A stretch of 64,000 nt of DNA from Octopus vulgaris (lineage: Eukaryota), in NCBI GenBank assembly GCA_951406725.2, contig OX597822.1, positions 90,706,001 to 90,770,000 on the forward strand, written 5' to 3'. Each line of letters begins with the position of its first letter. Positions within the stretch are counted from its first letter, which is position 1. The notes under the pieces were generated by a model, which was not told the origin of the DNA, ran no database searches, and saw nothing but the letters and a program-made list of their open reading frames with translations. Of this stretch, positions 10,146-60,964 are shown one piece after another. Both the position numbers and the translations under genes were made by a program.

Positions 10146-10800
10146 GGGATCTTTTCGGTTTGAACGGCAGTTTTTAACATAATTTCTAGGTAACTAAAAA
10201 ATTTCAAACTTCGTATACTGGTAGAATGTGTTTATAAAACATCTTTTTCTCTTGGCTTTATTGAGAAAATTCTATAGTTTGTAAGATATTTGTTGTATTT
10301 TTTCTTCAATTTCTGCAATTTCAACCAATCAGTGACGTCTATTGAGTTAAAAAGCATTCTGTGCCGTATGAATATGTCCCTCATTTAAGAAACAGATTGG
10401 GTTTATTTACATTTCTGAAGGAAAAAAGATACCCTTCCCCCACCCCTAACCCTAACCCTAACCCTAAAAGAGATTGAAATGCAATAGATCGATACTAGGG
10501 TCATAATTATGGGTGACAATTTCATATGACACCGCTAGAAAAAACTGCCGTTCAAACCGAAAAGATCCCGTTATTGTTGTTTAGTTCAACGTCAGCTCTA
10601 CTCAAGCAGACTTATGAACAAAACGTTTCAGCCATGACCATCGCGACTATTTTCGTACAAACCATCGAGGACTACGTTCAATGGTGTCGTTCCGTAGCAG
10701 GATGAGCAACCATATAGAGACCGACTCGTTCATCGACATGGCGATAGTTACGACGATGAGCTGTTAACATCTCTAACCTCACCTTCAACGAAAAGATCCC
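10146..10800. mobile_element. Telomere-repeat MITE copy 1 (10146-10569) plus ~220 bp captured flank plus a second terminal fragment; 6-bp TSD
   Basis: TIR GGGATCTTTTCGGTTTGAACGGCAGTTTTT; internal (CCCTAA)n at ~10443-10467; TSD ATGCAA at 10140-10145 and 10801-10806. Confidence 0.9.
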
Positions 10801-20787: not shown

Positions 20788-21025
20788 TACACATTTATAT
20801 ACATATACATAAGTATGTAGAAATATCGCCTGTACACATTGAAACACATACATATATCCATCCATCGAAATACGTGAATTACATTTTTTAAATGGTAAAA
20901 ATTAAAATCAAGGTAATTAACTAGGCAACCATTAGTGACAGTCCCATTCTCTTGCGACGAAGTTGATTTTCGTTTGCAGAAGCTGACAGATAACTACTGT
21001 CTATCACAATGCTGTTATCATATCC

Positions 21026-21294
21026 AGACATGTTGAATTAACAAGTTCAGACATGTTGAATTAACAAGTTCAGACATGTTGGCGATCGACAAGTCCATGC
21101 ATGTTGGCAATCGACAAGTCCAGACACGTTAGCAATCCACGTGTTCAGACATGCTGGGAAGCAAGCAAGTCCAAACATGTTGGTAATCGACAAATCCAGG
21201 TATGTTGGCCATCAACAAGTCCGAGCATGTTCAGCAATCAACGAGTTCAGACATACTGGCAATCAGCAAGTCAAGACATGTTTTCCCGCCAAAA
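21026..21294. promoter_or_regulatory. Tandem 23-26-bp repeat array in which each unit is a p53-family-like response element, ending in an E2F site
   Basis: About 10 adjacent decamer pairs, e.g. TAACAAGTTC AGACATGTTG (x2), AAGCAAGTCC AAACATGTTG, CAACAAGTCC GAGCATGTTC, CAGCAAGTCA AGACATGTTT; then TTTTCCCGCCAAAA at 21281-21294. The repeat is certain, the function is inferred. Confidence 0.7.
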
Positions 21295-21364
21295 ACAGAT
21301 TGATTTGAAAATTATTTTACTTCTTTGTTCTCCTACAGCCATCACTATAAGTTAATAAGTTATT

Positions 21365-21793
21365 GGGATATTTTCGGTTTGAACGGCAGTTTTTAACATA
21401 ATTTCTAGGTAACTAAACACTTTTAAACTTCGTATACTGGTAGAATGTGTTCATAAAACATCTTTTTCTCTTGGCTTTATTGAGAAAATTCTATAGTTTG
21501 TAAGATATTTGCTGGTTTTTTTTTCTTCAATTTCTGCAATTTCAACCAATCGATGACGTCGATTGAGTTAAAAAAACATTCTGTGCCGTATAAATATGTC
21601 CCTCGTTTAAGAAACAGATTGGGTTTATTTACATTTGTGAAGAAAAAAAGATACCCTTCCCCCCACCCCTAACCCTAACCCTAACCCTAAAACCCTATTG
21701 AAATGCAATAAATCGATACTAGGATCATAATTATGAGTGACAATTTCAGATGACACCGCTAAAAAAAACTGCCGTTCAAACCGAAAAGATCCC
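21365..21793. mobile_element. Telomere-repeat MITE copy 2, 6-bp TSD
   Basis: Same TIRs and (CCCTAA)n; TSD GTTATT at 21359-21364 and 21794-21799. Confidence 0.92.
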
Positions 21794-22635
21794 GTTATTG
21801 TTGTTTAGTTCAACGTCAGCTCTACTCAAGCAGACTTATGAACAAAACGTTTCAGCCATGGCCATCGCGACTATTTTCGTACAAACCATCGAGGACTACG
21901 TTCAATGGTGTCGTTCCGCAACAGGATGAGCAACCATATAGAGACCGACTCGTTCATCGACATGGCGATAGTTACGACGATGAGCTGTTAACATCTCTAA
22001 CCTGTTAACATCTTCAACACCATCACCTTTAATCAGGGTACAGTATAAAGCCGTTTAACTGTTAGAAATAGCAGCTAAATTCCCTTAAATTACACCACGC
22101 CGTCTTAGAAAAAGAGCACTCTAGATAATATGTCTAGAAAGCGGACAAGATAGTTTTCATCTTAGGTCTACACATTCATTACTAATCTTATTTATAACAA
22201 CTGCAGCAGCAGTAAAGCACCAACAGCAATAGCTGTAGCAGTAGCAACAACAACAACAGCAGCTGTAGCAAAAAAAAAAAAAAAAAACAGCAATACTCCG
22301 AAACAAATTAACAAGGAAGCAACCTCTATGTAGTCATTCGACATGCTAGAAATGGCTGCTAAATCTCCTTCTGATCACATTTTACCGTCTTAAAAAAAAG
22401 GATACATTGGATAATATGTTGTTTTGGAATGGTTACAACTGCTAAGAACATTAGGTAGTTCTAGAAGGCAACATTAAGACTACCAACGAAAGCTCTAACA
22501 GGATTATCATAAAGCCATCGAAGAGTGGGAGCTGCTATATAGTTGCTCATTGTGCTAGACATAGCAACCTAACCATTCTCAATAACATCTTGCTATTTTA
22601 AGAATGGAGACTAATTTTGATAATATAGTTATTGA

Positions 22636-24586
22636 CAGAGCTGGGCATAAATCCGTTAATCCGTTAATCGTTAATCGAAGTTAGCATTTTCGTTAACGAT
22701 TTAACTTTTAAGTTAACTTTGAAACTCAAGTCTGTTAACCGAAAAATTTCATAAAAACCGGTAAACGTTTAAAAGTTTCTAGTGTTTTCAGATTGTCTTA
22801 GCATATTTAATATCGTATGTGTCATTCTTTCAACTCCGATATAACGCCACTTTTTGCTTGTAAAAACAGCCGGAAATGTCTTTGTCCTGTCAAGAGGGAA
22901 CAGTGACCACTCTGAGGTGGATGTCAATAGAGAAAATATTGACTTCCATAAAGTGGAAAACATAAATGGAAAGAAAAAAGTTGGTAAATATTTCGGTGTG
23001 AACGCATATAGTTGTTACGTGGTAGCGGGGCATGCTAGAAATAGCAACCAAATCTTTCCTTTTCTGGAAAAAAAGGATCCGTTTACGGGTGATTTCGATG
23101 TCACATTGGTTGAAAGCATGCAAAATAACCTGGAAAAGAAACAAAGACTCACGAAACAAAACTCTCTTTCGTGGGGAAACTTCGAGATCCATACCACCCC
23201 TCCCAGCTTTTTTCTTTTTCGGGTTTCGAGGTCAAATACATTGAATGTACCCGAAAAAAAAATCTGTGGAAGAAAATATTCCACACCGAGGTACGAAATA
23301 TTTACCGAAAAAATAAAATCTTGTACCGATTATACCTGTATTTTGATTAATGTACTTCAAATTGAAACGTGGCAAAATTTTTGTCGGTTGCCATCTGGGA
23401 TAATTTTAGTAACAAATCAAACAGGTAAGATGCACTAAGAGTTTCACTTTTAGCGTTTGTCTATAATGTTATTGCTTATACACCTGTTAATCTATTTACC
23501 TGCCCATAAATGTCAAATTTAGTCACCAAGATCAGCTAAAACTACATAGCTGTAAACCAGTGGTATATAAAGCACCCACTGACAAAATTTCAAATCTGTA
23601 TCTAAAGAATTTACAAAGTTACAAGCAAATATTGTGGACACTCCTCTTGAACCTGAATAAGTCAAAATAGCATTACGTTTGACATTAATATGAACACTAA
23701 AGATGTTTTTAGGTGTTTTTTTCTTTCTTACACGTAAACATAACACGGCCTTGCTCGGTTGGGACTACACGTGTGTTACTTTGACATCATCATTCCATAA
23801 AATTTGTTTATAGGGAGAAAAATATTGAAAAATATTAATATATGTGTGAGAAAGAAACGAGGAGGGAGGTTTTGAGATGTGCTAGAAACATTTAGCTCTG
23901 AAATTATTAACAGTTTTTTTTTTTTAACCGAAAATGTTTCTCTCACGGGTTTTCAGTGCGTAGTGAAAAGGGGGGAAAAGAAAAAGGCCGAAATCGTTTC
24001 GGGTTGGTTTGATTAGGGAGTGGCAGGAGTGGAAAAAAATTTTCAAAACTTTTTTCTTTTCTTTTTTTTCGTTCTGAAGACTTTGGTGACAAACATTGGA
24101 AAAAATCCCCGTCAAAACGGAGAAATTTCAACTTATGTTGGCCGTCTGATCTGAAATTCCGTTTTTCAGAAGCACCCCAACCAAAAATTTTGTCTACTCT
24201 GCAATCGTAATCTACACCGTTTGAAAGGTATTTGTATAAAATTTAGTTAAAAAATACCCATTTTCCAGGAAGTTACGAAGGGGGAGATGGCGGGTCCTGT
24301 GAATTTTCCGAAACTCGGAAAAATTTTTCCAATAAACTTTGCAGATATTCAATCTACAAGATATAAACAATTTTTTTAGTGAAAGTTTCGTTAAAAAGTA
24401 TCCATTTTTCTGGAAGTCATTAGGCAACAAAATCGGTGAGTTATTAAACTGTAGTTATGCCTTTTTTCAATAAAAGTTAACGTTATTGGATTAACGTTAA
24501 TTTCCGTTACATTTCCAATTAACGATTAACGAAAGTAACTTTTTGGTTAACGTAGTTAACTTTTCGATTAACGGTGTCCACCTGTA
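22636..24586. mobile_element. Non-autonomous hAT-like element
   Basis: Left end CAGAGCTGGGCA, right end TGTCCACCTGTA, subterminal CGTTAA/TTAACG arrays at both ends; 8-bp TSD GTTATTGA / GTTATTCA (7/8). No transposase motif recognised. Confidence 0.75.
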
Positions 24587-24611
24587 GTTATTCATATATT
24601 ATCAGAATATA

Positions 24612-25015: not shown

Positions 25016-25342
25016 GAAAGAGAGAAAGAGATAAAAGAGATATAAAAGTTAATGATGAACACACACATTTGACCATAGCTGGTCTGAGCCTAAACAGCAG
25101 CAACAACGAATATATTAACTCCACTTTGCAGTAACAACGTAAACGTTACTTAACTAGAATATCATTTTATTGCCTTTGTCAAATTTCCAGAGAAAAGTAC
25201 GCAAGGACTACTACTGCTGTGACTAGAAATAAGAGATAGATGGCAATTAGATTAAAAAAAGAAAAGAAGAAAAGAAAAGAAAAGGAAGAAACAAAAAACG
25301 AAAAAAGAGAAAGAAGTAAAGAGAAATTGTCAAATCAGTCTG

Positions 25343-25373
25343 TTTTCGCGGGAAAACATGTTTGGACTTGCTG
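25343..25373 (+). promoter_or_regulatory. Overlapping E2F / p53-like composite site
   Basis: TTTTCGCGGGAAAA overlapping AAACATGTTT GGACTTGCTG (19/20 to consensus); inverted homolog of the end of the 21-kb array. Confidence 0.6.
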
Positions 25374-25674
25374 ATTGCGAAGTATTTCAGTCACATTGTG
25401 TTAGACTGGCTACAGCTTCTGCAAGTGGAAATGGGTGTGGTGGTAACAACGAATGGGAGACGAGTGTGGTAGTAGAAACGATTGGGAAGCTATTTTGCCT
25501 TGATTTTGATGTTCTCCATTCATGAAATGCAATTGAATTGCGTATGAATGGATGGATCTTATGTGTATGTGTATCTGTTTCGGCGTGTACAAGCGAAACA
25601 ACAGTGGCAACAGCAAAAGAAAATTTTAAAAATTAGATGAATGAATGGATACATAGACAAATAAATAAATAACT

Positions 25675-43565: not shown

Positions 43566-43626
43566 TAGTTAAAACTGATGATTCTACATAAACCACATAA
43601 AACTGATGGTTCTACATAAAACTGGT

Positions 43627-44078
43627 GGGATCTTTTCGGTTTGAACGGCAGTTTTTAACATAATTTCTAGGTAACTAAAAAAATTTAAACTTCGTATACT
43701 GGTAGAATGTGTTTATAAAATATCTTTTTCTCTTGGCTTTATTGAGAAAATTCTATAGTTTGTAAGATATTTGTTGTTGTTTTCTTCAATTTCTGCAATT
43801 TCAACCAATCACTGACGTCCATTGAGGTAAACAACATTCTGTGCCGTATGAATATGTCCCTCGTTTAAGAAACAGATTGGGTTTATTTACATTTGTGAAG
43901 AAAAAAAAGATACCCTTTTCCCCCATCCCTAACCTTAACCCTAACCCTAATCCTAACCCTAACTAACTCTAACCCTAAAATAGACTGAAATGCAATAGAT
44001 CGATACTAGGGTCATAATTATGGGTGACAATCTCATGACACCGCTAGAAAAAACCGCCGTTCAAACCGAAAAGATCCA
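43627..44078. mobile_element. Telomere-repeat MITE copy 3, 6-bp TSD
   Basis: Same TIRs, longer (CCCTAA)-like tract; TSD ACTGGT at 43621-43626 and 44079-44084. Confidence 0.92.
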
Positions 44079-47279: not shown

Positions 47280-48097
47280 TAGTACTCTATTTGATCGAAC
47301 CAGGAAATTGACCACAGCGATATTTGAATTAGGAACGTAACGAGGCGTAACTCGAATGTATTTGTCAGGCGCTCTACCAATTCTGCAAAACCACCGTACT
47401 TATTTCGATAGAGAATGTACGAGGTCGGAAAGCAGATTATCCAGAAAGCTGCTGCTAATCCGTGTAAACTGTTACAACGAGAAGAGGCACGGCGAAATAT
47501 CGAGGGCAGTGAAATGAAAGAAAATGAATTGTTCACTGTATAGTGAAACTTTCGACTGGAATGCGTCAGACACATGGAGAAACAAAAGAGAGAAAAACGT
47601 AGAGGTTATAAAGAGAGCGAGAGGAGAGAGAAAATAGTGTATGAACAAGGAAGAGAGAGAGAGAGAGTGAGAAAGAGACGAAGTGTTTAAAAATGAGAGT
47701 GGGGAGAAGATCGTATGTGAGCGAGGAAATGTAAGAGAGAAAGAGGAATGGAGAGAGAGAGAGAGAGAGAGAAAAACGAAAGGGTTAAAAAAAAGAGAGA
47801 AGCGGGAGAAAGTAGTGTGTGAGCGAGGAAGAGAACGAGAGAAAGAGATAGAGACAGTAAGAAAGAGAGAAAGAGAGAGTAAAAAAGAGAAAGAGAGAAA
47901 AGAGAGGGCAGAAAATGGAAGCGGTTAAAAAAGAGAGGGGAGAAAGAAAATTGTATGTGAGCGAGGAAGAGAGAGAAATATGGAAGGAGAGAGAGAGTGT
48001 GAGAAAGAGAGAGGGGAGAGAGAGGGAGAGAGAGGAAGAGAAAGAGAGATAGAGAGATAGAGAGAGTGTGTGTTGTTGAATGAATTTCGTTTTAATA

Positions 48098-48185
48098 GGC
48101 TCCGCCCATTTCGCCGCGAAACATGTTGAAACTTGCTCGAATCTGAACTATAAAAGTGACGACCCCCGCGAAAGTACTCACTCTA
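48098..48185 (+). promoter_or_regulatory. Promoter of the bZIP gene: GC box, E2F-like site, p53-like element, TATA box, initiator
   Basis: GGCTCCGCCC 48098-48107; TTTCGCCGCGAAA 48109-48121; AAACATGTTG AAACTTGCTC 48119-48138; TATAAAAG 48149-48156; TCA(+1)CT with A at 48180, 31 bp after the TATA start. Confidence 0.8.
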
Positions 48186-48245: not shown

Positions 48246-48479
48246 ATGGAAGACGAAACACATTTGGATCATTCAGAATCAATGCTGGAAGAAAATTCTC
48301 TTTATTTACCAAGTGTGACTGACTTGGACACTGATGTGAAGAAAACAGCGGATATCTGTGTGAAAAACAACAGCCTTTTACCAATGATTAAGCTTGAGTT
48401 AAAATCTAAATTGCAACTCAAAAGACACCGAAACGGGCAAAGCTTGGACATTGACGCTGAACCTAAACCGGAATATAAG
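48246..48479 (+). CDS. ATF3/JDP2-like bZIP transcription factor, coding exon 1 (78 codons)
   Basis: ATG in CAAATGG context; LLPMIKLELKSKLQLKR resembles the ATF3 KEELRFAIQNK motif; donor AAG|GTATGT, phase 0. Confidence 0.82.
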
Positions 48480-50946: not shown

Positions 50947-51054
50947 ATGTCTCCTTCAGAAATACAACGAAGAAATGAAATGAAGAATAGAAATAAAGTT
51001 GCTGCCAAGAAATATCGTGATAAACAAAGGATGAAGAAATATGAAAATGAAATG
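50947..51054 (+). CDS. ATF3/JDP2-like bZIP, exon 2 (basic region, 36 codons)
   Basis: Polypyrimidine tract + TTTCAG|; MSPSEIQRRNEMKNRNKVAAKKYRDKQR (N-x2-AA-x3-R signature); donor |GTCAGT, phase 0. Confidence 0.88.
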
Positions 51055-51588: not shown

Positions 51589-51711
51589 GTGCTGGAAGAA
51601 CTGACAACCAAGAATAGTAATCTAAAGCAGTTATACCAAGAAATGTTGTCAATGCTTATGGATCTGAAGGCTCAAGAGAATCCTGTTGTTAAAGCGGAAC
51701 CACATCCATGA
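51589..51711 (+). CDS. ATF3/JDP2-like bZIP, exon 3 (leucine zipper, 40 codons + TGA)
   Basis: TTGCAG|GTG; VLEELTTKNSNLKQLYQEMLSMLMDLK with L-L-M-L heptad spacing and the conserved a-position Asn, in register with the basic region. Confidence 0.85.
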   Translation: MLEELTTKNSNLKQLYQEMLSMLMDLKAQENPVVKAEPHP

Positions 51712-57660: not shown

Positions 57661-58114
57661 TTGGATTTTGGATTTTGGCTACTCCTTCTAGCGTGCAAGG
57701 TGTCCTATGATGGTCACCTCTTATGTCTTTAAATGTACAATGTATTTGTATGAATAATATATAGTCTATTGACTAATTTTCTACATGCTAGGCCACTGGT
57801 AGTAGAAAATTTCTAAAAAAGTTTTTCCTACCCTGATATATAATAATTATATATATATATATATGGGGAAAAAATCGACATCGTCGGTCACGAATGACCA
57901 TGGGTGTGCCTAAGAGGTTTCCCTCCGGGATGGATACAAGTCTGGGTGGAAAGTCGCCTCAATGACGAACGCACAACCTAGGGTTTTTGGAAAAAGAGAA
58001 AAAAAAAATAGTATCATGTAAGAACCGAAACGTCGTCTCCTCATGCTCTTTAGTTACATTTTTAGGCCGCCGGCATTCACAGCACATGTTCAGTTTCAAT
58101 TGTAATTCTAGAGA

Positions 58115-58184
<70 letters not shown>

Positions 58185-58384: not shown

Positions 58385-58517
58385 CCGCCCACTAAACAAA
58401 AAAAACGTTCGTCCCCCGCCCACCTCCTCGCCTCACGTCGCAAAACAAGTTCAGACTTGTCGCTCGCCTGAAAGAAAAAATTGTATATAAGCTGTGTTTC
58501 TATCTATATCTTTAGTC
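58385..58517 (+). promoter_or_regulatory. Second promoter-like module: GC boxes, p53-like element, TATA, Inr
   Basis: CCGCCC x2; AAACAAGTTC AGACTTGTCG 58443-58462 (19/20); TATATAAG 58484-58491; TTA(+1)GTC with A at 58514, 30 bp after the TATA start. Confidence 0.55.
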
Positions 58518-60599: not shown

Positions 60600-60964
60600 T
60601 AATTATATGTTATTGTTCTGCACGTTAATCAGTATTAATTTGTTACTAAAAGTACTGTTTCTTGAACTTCCTCTTATTTCTTGTAAGAGATACAACAGCT
60701 ATCGCTAAACAGATTTGTCATGTCAGATTTGCCTCGTGGCCCCGACGGACAAAATGGAAAAGGCGTTGCCCCGGAGGAGGATGAAGGAGACGCTCTGAAA
60801 CAGCCACTCTGATTCCCAGGGCTCGCACATGCGGAGAGACATCTCTACCCCTATATCAGTGAGAAGAGATGAAATCTGGGAGCCAAGATTCCTGAAATCT
60901 CCATTGCCACAGGCTCGGCCAAAAATCACAGGCTCGGCCAAAAATCACAGGCTCGGCCAAAAAG
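60600..60964 (-). mobile_element. CRE-clade-like retroelement 3' end, next to a 19-bp x3 tandem repeat (60908-60964)
   Basis: ESEWLFQSVSFILLRGNAFSIL resembles the FLFQR(I/L)SIAIQRGNA C-terminal motif; (CACAGGCTCGGCCAAAAAT)3. Confidence 0.55.

Follow-up and report, generated by a model that had tools for sequence, protein, structure and literature searches.

A degenerate tandem array of p53-family-type sites as a candidate distal enhancer of an ATF3-like gene in Octopus vulgaris

Fuzzy tandem repeats containing p53 half-sites have been described in mice, where, in the published excerpts considered here, those at Rbl2, Ncoa1, and Klhl26 conferred p53-dependent expression on reporters and were bound by p53 in ChIP experiments (Simeonova et al., 2012; PMC3386156). 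The search that yielded them covered only the 10 kb before and the 5 kb after start sites (PMC3386156). Excerpts of further reports describe mammalian ATF3 as being induced downstream of p53 (PMC3202577; PMC7498329) and human ATF3 as having an alternative promoter that lies ~43.5 kb upstream and contains p53 and E2F motifs (PMC2655689). Predicted p53 sites are abundant relative to binding, with under 8% of them bound in mammals according to the excerpt of PMC7498329. The CDE/CHR and E2F/CLE pairs, as excerpted from PMC5716687, have a 4-nt gap between site and hexamer.

Among titles and abstract openings of the open-licence literature, we found no direct p53-family target gene in cephalopods and no fused p53/E2F site, and no case like the array described below was found in the open-licence literature searched. 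The array lies in a 64-kb window of the Octopus vulgaris genome (the whole stretch of DNA analysed; coordinates below are those of the window). It probably acts as a repeat-amplified distal p53-family enhancer of an ATF3-like gene 27 kb away, a reading to which we assign a probability of roughly 0.6.

The array and its E2F-type site

The original prediction for this locus was a degenerate tandem array of p53-type elements, and the sequence, the unit table, and TRF agreed on its existence. TRF reported a period of 25 with 10.5 copies and 73% matches, plus a higher-order period of 101 bp. About 10 elements had been placed at 21026..21294; the array stands, with its count corrected to 11 units and its start to 21016 (Table 1). 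The 20-mers begin at 21016, 21039, 21062, 21087, 21112, 21137, 21163, 21188, 21213, 21239, and 21264, and the periods from unit 1 onward are 23, 23, 25, 25, 25, 26, 25, 25, 26, and 25. Mismatches to RRRCWWGYYYRRRCWWGYYY in units 1–11 number 4, 2, 2, 3, 3, 4, 1, 4, 1, 4, and 2, with no perfect unit. Set against the definition of a p53-family response element, the spacer is zero in all units, and five of the 11 units have two or fewer mismatches. All four core C/G positions are intact in 8/11 units, as expected from the claim that most units keep the C and G of the CWWG cores, and the core is broken in 3/11. Unit 1 is approximately a half-site only, units 2 and 3 are exact duplicates, and units 6 and 10 differ at three of 20 positions, with a pairwise identity among units of ~70%. 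Differences in length from unit to unit are confined to the linkers, and no indel occurs within any 20-mer. The linkers had been described as three to six variable bases; the length was right, but variability was overstated, since GCAAT is found in three of the 10 linkers and most of the remainder are one change or one indel away from it.

Table 1. Features of the locus, in coordinates of the window
Feature	Position	Strand	Details
p53-family-type tandem array	21016..21283	+	11 twenty-mers, each two abutting decamers; linkers 3–6 nt
Near-palindromic E2F-type site TTTTCCCGCCAAAA	21281..21294		shares 3 bases with unit 11 end
TTTGAA hexamer	21304..21309	+	probably no CHR partner of the E2F site
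Left arm of old ~500-bp inverted duplication, holds array	20826..21326	+	BLAST
Right arm, single un-amplified unit	about 25310..25600	−	BLAST and genome search
E2F-type site fused to p53-type site	25343..25373	+	E2F-type 25343–25356; p53-type 25354–25373 (1 mismatch)
Promoter-like module	48102..48156	+	GC box; E2F-type 48109–48121; p53-type 48119–48138 (1 mismatch); TATA 48149–48156
ATF3-like bZIP gene, three exons, 154 aa	48246..51711	+	exons 48246–48479, 50947–51054, 51589–51711; GT-AG borders
Second promoter-like module	58385..58491	+	two GC boxes; p53-type 58443–58462 (1 mismatch); TATA-like 58484–58491

A motif scan against a random background gave 12 core-intact sites with two or fewer mismatches in 264 kb. 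Five of them lie in the array, compared with 0–4 such sites over the whole sequence in each of 10 Markov simulations of 264 kb; this count is inflated because a unit and its copies do not count as independent sites. Single-strand structure of the array region was not exceptional (z −1.70; 10/200 shuffles equally good).

E2F-type sites were called with the E2F consensus. The last unit was claimed to overlap such a site, and unit 11 indeed shares three bases with TTTTCCCGCCAAAA, within which TTTTCCCGCC has its sole occurrence in the window. TTTGAA had been read as a CHR element, and this reading was dropped because the gap is 14 nt rather than the 4 nt excerpted from PMC5716687 and because the twin arm described below reads TTTGAC at this position. 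The 14 nt are counted from the E2F core; the hexamer begins 9 nt past the end of the 14-mer.

The ATF3-like gene, its promoter-like module, and the twin arm

The gene predicted ~27 kb downstream of the array is real and carries its own p53+E2F site before a TATA box. The product of its exon 1 is identical to a protein named 'cyclic AMP-dependent transcription factor ATF-3-like [Octopus vulgaris]' (P0001), and the gene product contains a bZIP domain (PF07716) and a K-x-E-L motif that is conserved and common to proteins named ATF-3-like. Relatives, some of them named ATF-3-like, were found in O. bimaculoides, O. sinensis, Argonauta, Acanthosepion, Haliotis, Mytilus, and Asterias; identity to most non-octopod relatives is 26–35%. 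Its Atlas neighbours are small bZIP clusters, its PDB relatives are weak C/EBP matches, and no close paralogue was found in the genome. By sequence, we regard the gene as a divergent family member and putative ATF3 relative. A weak bZIP match on C16 (L100, G000:C16:53059847; E 0.086, 52% over 31 aa), obtained with the starfish-cluster ATF-3-like protein P0014 as query, might belong to a more canonical gene of the ATF3/FOS type and perhaps to a closer ATF3 orthologue.

In the promoter-like module of the ATF3-like gene, the p53-type site is fused to the E2F-type site and ends 10 bp ahead of the TATA box (TATAAAAG at 48149); the CpG observed/expected ratio is 1.6 in the module and 0.78 window-wide. 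A stress enhancer at the array predicts a p53 site at the gene, and none was mentioned when that idea was put forward. This promoter site is the strongest support for the enhancer reading because it was not part of the original observation. The chance of a p53-type site with at most one mismatch in a given 60 bp is ~1.2e-4, as calculated from 5563 such sites in 2.8 Gb.

A p53-family gene had been assumed for the mollusc host. PF00870 matched three exons at one locus on C12, in agreement with this assumption, and two of these exons share with p63/p73 structures SCVGG-NRRPI and RICACPGRDRKADE, which we take to be the p53-family motifs carrying DNA-contact residues. The DNA specificity of the octopus protein is thus presumably similar to that of p63/p73. 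A SWIB search aimed at MDM2 returned one match (L121).

The ATF3-like gene had also been called the only real gene in the window. It stands as the coding gene, but it may not be the sole transcription unit, given another promoter-like site at 58.4 kb. Among 599 filtered ORFs, the 121 downstream on the plus strand and the 102 upstream on the minus strand showed only transposon-type domains over cut-offs, in a scan that would miss small exons. No cellular Pfam family exceeded the cut-off in the 121 ORFs downstream of the 58.4-kb module, and no Rfam family was found there or anywhere in 264 kb. The module is a candidate for a p53-induced gene, either non-coding or with a small ORF; downstream of it, near 60719, begins an ORF of 30 codons. 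GA-rich tracts lie upstream of the 48.1-kb module (47650–48066), the 58.4-kb module (58110–58177), and the one-site arm (25254–25326).

We compared these sites with genome-wide counts. The 5563 sites matching the p53 consensus with at most one mismatch compare with 2681 for a reversed control, an excess that may reflect dinucleotide composition, repeats, or selection. Of the 12 core-intact sites that the 264 kb contain at two or fewer mismatches, eight fall in the interval 21–58.5 kb. Three independent 1-mismatch sites within 37 kb have a P of 6e-5; clustering alone is no proof, since ~5 such spans are expected genome-wide by chance. Paired p53-type sites showed no genome-wide excess (55 strand-matches versus 141 in the control), and among the 23 loci taken from the paired-site search, five sites occurred only in the array and in one pentamer microsatellite (L068–L070). 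At L068 (G000:C2:143824900), the pentamers CTTGC/CTTGG form repeated 2-mismatch p53-type 20-mers, which recalls the (TGYCC)n of PIG3. A fused p53+E2F pattern gave six matches genome-wide and none in the reversed control. Three of the six are at this locus by construction, because the pattern was written from those three sites; one of the others is in LINE-like sequence, one in a microsatellite, and one in nondescript DNA, none with promoter-like context on reading.

A genome search with 20900–21350 returned the query itself and one other place, 25310–25388 on the minus strand, at 84%. The array lies inside one arm of an inverted duplication because inter-arm homology continues upstream of it: 20826–21011 matches 25394–25596 in inverted orientation at 63% (BLAST; 205–210 columns, E 5e-10 to 2e-8). 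At the last unit, the arms are 84% identical over 80 columns (BLAST). The local alignment score of the arms was 107, compared with a shuffle mean of 24.9, and was reached by none of 500 shuffles. Identity amounts to 61/70 in the last unit and downstream block and 136/181 in the upstream part, and a 36-nt segment of the right arm is 92% complementary to 21259–21294. Contigs from organisms A, C, D, and E, introduced below, also contain the right-arm motif block. One unit being ancestral and eleven derived is apparently the simplest inference, the alternative being contraction in the twin arm.

No BLAST match extended the duplication inward, and the DNA between the arms consists mostly of later repeats, namely a MITE, a high-copy repeat, and an element bracketed by an 8-bp direct repeat. 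The MITE-like element, of high copy number with 30-bp inverted repeats and an internal (CCCTAA)n, occurs at 21365–22003, 10146–10779, and 43626–44077, one copy being inserted 70 bp past the E2F site of the array. The repeat element at 22625–24592 has the 8-bp direct repeat TAGTTATT on both sides and imperfect inverted ends, and is presumably hAT-like.

The enhancer reading and its alternatives

According to the enhancer reading, a module with one p53 site and one E2F site would have been duplicated in inverted orientation, and in one copy the p53 site and a 5-nt linker would have risen about tenfold in number, in part through copying of a 101-bp block. The latest 23-bp unit would have been gained, or lost, once organism E had diverged. 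Each 20-mer would bind one p53-family tetramer, and with up to eight intact sites, we propose that binding would therefore be strong at low levels of activated protein. At the terminal p53 site, E2F/DP bound to the overlapping E2F site could gate or assist, linking output to cell-cycle state; the one-site arm and the promoter could be gated likewise, and the amplified sites would be free of this gate. The enhancer would loop to the ATF3-like promoter, already bound by the same factors, and the trigger could be either DNA damage or p63-like developmental control.

A bolder form of this reading, which we consider speculative and rather unlikely, is that octopuses control the ATF3-like stress gene by a fused p53/E2F switch, with the two factors competing or cooperating at its overlapping sites, that this switch was copied twice from the promoter, and that the p53 half of one copy was amplified tenfold into an ungated, high-gain damage enhancer. 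If this were true, the locus would preserve three stages in the evolution of an enhancer, represented by the promoter, the one-site copy, and the amplified copy, and the link from p53 to ATF3 would predate the mollusc-vertebrate split.

Conservation of the array bears on whether it is functional. Runs with all or part of the stretch (20/24 listed) came from five organisms and 11 studies, two possibly being the source, and four were compared with the array stretch: X7 (organism A), X6 (C), X8 (D), and X17 (E). X7 and X6 were exact over 21052–21362, X8 had two differences, and all three contained the exact 23-bp unit duplicate. X17, ~92% identical, spanned the 573-bp stretch within a single contig; it showed 44 substitutions and a gap of 26 bp, equal to one unit fewer. 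Organism E keeps the TTTCCCGC core of the E2F-type site; immediately past the core it has one change and a gap of 1 base. The flank at 20890–21010 is without cover in three DNA runs, an absence that carries no weight.

The strongest competitor is a neutral minisatellite, in which a p53-like unit inherited from a once-functional or duplicated module was multiplied by slippage or unequal exchange and is now drifting, irrespective of any role of the single sites at 25.35 and 48.1 kb; we consider this unlikely. Divergence from organism E, by counts resting on the 39 changes tabulated out of 44, is 14/222 sites in the array and 17/162 in the upstream flank, and is thus not significantly below that of the flank (p 0.10), as drift would have it. 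The three units with a broken core also fit neutrality. Among the 12 changes within 20-mers in organism E, nine fall in R/Y columns, one exchanges W for W, one loses a core G, and one restores a core G. Between units 3–11 and the majority unit (unit 1 and the duplicate unit 2 being left out), 7/72 core cells and 24/108 R/Y cells are changed (Fisher p 0.022), a value overstated because the units share ancestry. When each column and base change was counted once by hand, this depletion vanished, with six changes in the eight core columns and 15 in the 12 others, a non-significant difference that favours drift. Of the R/Y changes, 19/24 remain within the p53 consensus, and transitions alone hold R and Y columns there, which a neutral array would also show. 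Against drift, consensus-breaking changes numbered nine versus 15.2 expected with the transition/transversion type held (P 0.014; units non-independent). The array is old and has kept its register, because its units are ~70% identical while its orthologues are ~94% identical, and such retention without an indel in any 20-mer also argues against neutrality. Together, these comparisons are only suggestive of selection on the CWWG cores.

A less likely alternative, which we regard as distinctly improbable, is that the two arms drive unannotated non-coding transcripts as promoters placed back to back, perhaps having decayed from copies of the ATF3-like promoter or serving as an alternative promoter upstream of it; the array would then drive a local p53-induced RNA with no action at a distance. 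In orientation and in E2F-then-p53 order, the 25.35-kb arm agrees with the ATF3-like promoter; the two are 71% identical in a 52-nt alignment that runs through the TATA position. The human ATF3 alternative promoter with p53 and E2F motifs ~43.5 kb upstream, as excerpted from PMC2655689, offers a precedent. In the 24 nt past the site, a window chosen post hoc, 9/2000 shuffles were equally good. Similarity to the 5′ region of the gene beyond the motif was, however, not significant (243/500 shuffles equally good), and an intact TATA box at the promoter-equivalent position is absent from both arms. Short pieces at 20895–21054 and 21052–21148 occur in two runs guessed to be RNA and would suit local transcription, but the pieces from the four runs so guessed have a depth of 2–3 at the array region and are uninformative, the runs listed with the stretch include no RNA run, and the lack of Rfam matches also speaks against such transcripts. 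A relic of ATF3-like coding sequence inside the arms was considered and rejected, the similarity being non-significant versus shuffles.

We also searched for dispersed copies of the array. Apart from the two arms themselves, only the adjoining MITE (last ~40 bases of a 551-bp query) and a pyrimidine tract were matched, in searches that could miss copies below about 75–80% identity, and 456 kb of loci from elsewhere gave no coverage of 21016–21295 or 25310–25600. No search run thus identified the array as a subterminal repeat belonging to an abundant transposon, a possibility raised with the original prediction. The outer arm ends are too decayed for a target-site duplication to be read, and no third copy was found at the limited sensitivity of the search. 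A 23-letter motif at two to three mismatches had 26 other matches and one in the control, and 12 of the 18 non-local loci taken aligned as an old dispersed family. Membership of the array in this family was rejected, as the family profile matches just its 23–26 selected bases and shares no flank with it.

The family itself (L104–L106, L110, and L113–L120; L033 near 330–640) has a pairwise identity of about 65–75% and carries one p53-type half-site beside a near half-site. It may seed p53 sites genome-wide because some copies (such as L110 and L117) read CAAGTCCAGACATG.

That the ~500-bp arms represent the long terminal inverted repeats of an old DNA transposon, foldback-type or other, with subterminal p53-like repeats is highly improbable: inverted arms ~4 kb apart, one with tandem repeats, and an old family with a similar 23-mer would suit it, and equally old copies could be missed because the DNA search did not recover even the 63%-identical partner arm, but no third copy, no coverage of either arm region in the other loci, a family profile limited to its selected bases, and inter-arm DNA made mostly of later repeat insertions all stand against it.

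Comparison with known systems

The locus provides a concrete candidate for a p53-family target in a cephalopod. One site and eleven on homologous backgrounds, with and without E2F overlap, form a natural test of how amplification affects strength and gating. If the enhancer reading is true, this suggests that the link from p53 to ATF3 is ancient or evolved twice; if the array is inert, the site in the ATF3-like promoter remains a good candidate for a p53 target.

The E2F-type site followed by TTTGAA resembles the DREAM-binding CDE/CHR and E2F/CLE pairs excerpted from PMC5716687, but the octopus gap is 14 nt, no known start site is nearby, and the hexamer is absent in the twin arm. Multiplication of p53 sites by repeat processes is also known, in the excerpts available, from ERV LTRs, L1, and Alu (PMC7498329) and from the PIG3 (TGYCC)n microsatellite (PMC3386156). 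Unlike these cases, the octopus array showed no dispersed family, and its unit is 23–26 bp rather than a pentamer. MDM2, CDKN1A, and GDF15 resemble the locus in having several sites or elements per gene (PMC11239874), the octopus sites being at 21, 25, 48, and 58 kb; their regulation is experimentally shown, and the excerpt does not describe them as products of tandem repeats. The likeness to mammalian ATF3, including its upstream P1 promoter (PMC3202577; PMC2655689; PMC7498329), lies in p53 and E2F motifs near the start and far upstream, whereas the excerpts of these reports do not mention fused, overlapping p53+E2F sites, and the octopus gene is divergent.

The closest counterparts are the mouse fuzzy tandem repeats (PMC3386156, as excerpted), which share with the octopus array a single-locus degenerate repeat of p53 half-sites, no known transposon, and a position near a candidate target. 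The mouse clusters have proven function, lie a few kb from the start, contain perfect half-sites (6/7 at Rbl2), and show little conservation even in rat. The octopus array, known from sequence, repeats a whole 20-mer 11 times, lies 27 kb away, bears an E2F cap, is kept in relatives, and has a one-unit twin. In sequence it is a degenerate tandem repeat outside known dispersed repeats, as fuzzy tandem repeats are, while its 27 kb to the ATF3-like promoter, across many repeat insertions, exceeds the distance used for the mouse clusters (PMC3386156), although a nearer, unannotated start may exist; because it agrees with them in sequence and not in distance, we call it a candidate variant of the fuzzy-tandem-repeat p53 cluster and no member. 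If the enhancer reading is true, repeat-built p53 clusters would extend from mice to molluscs.
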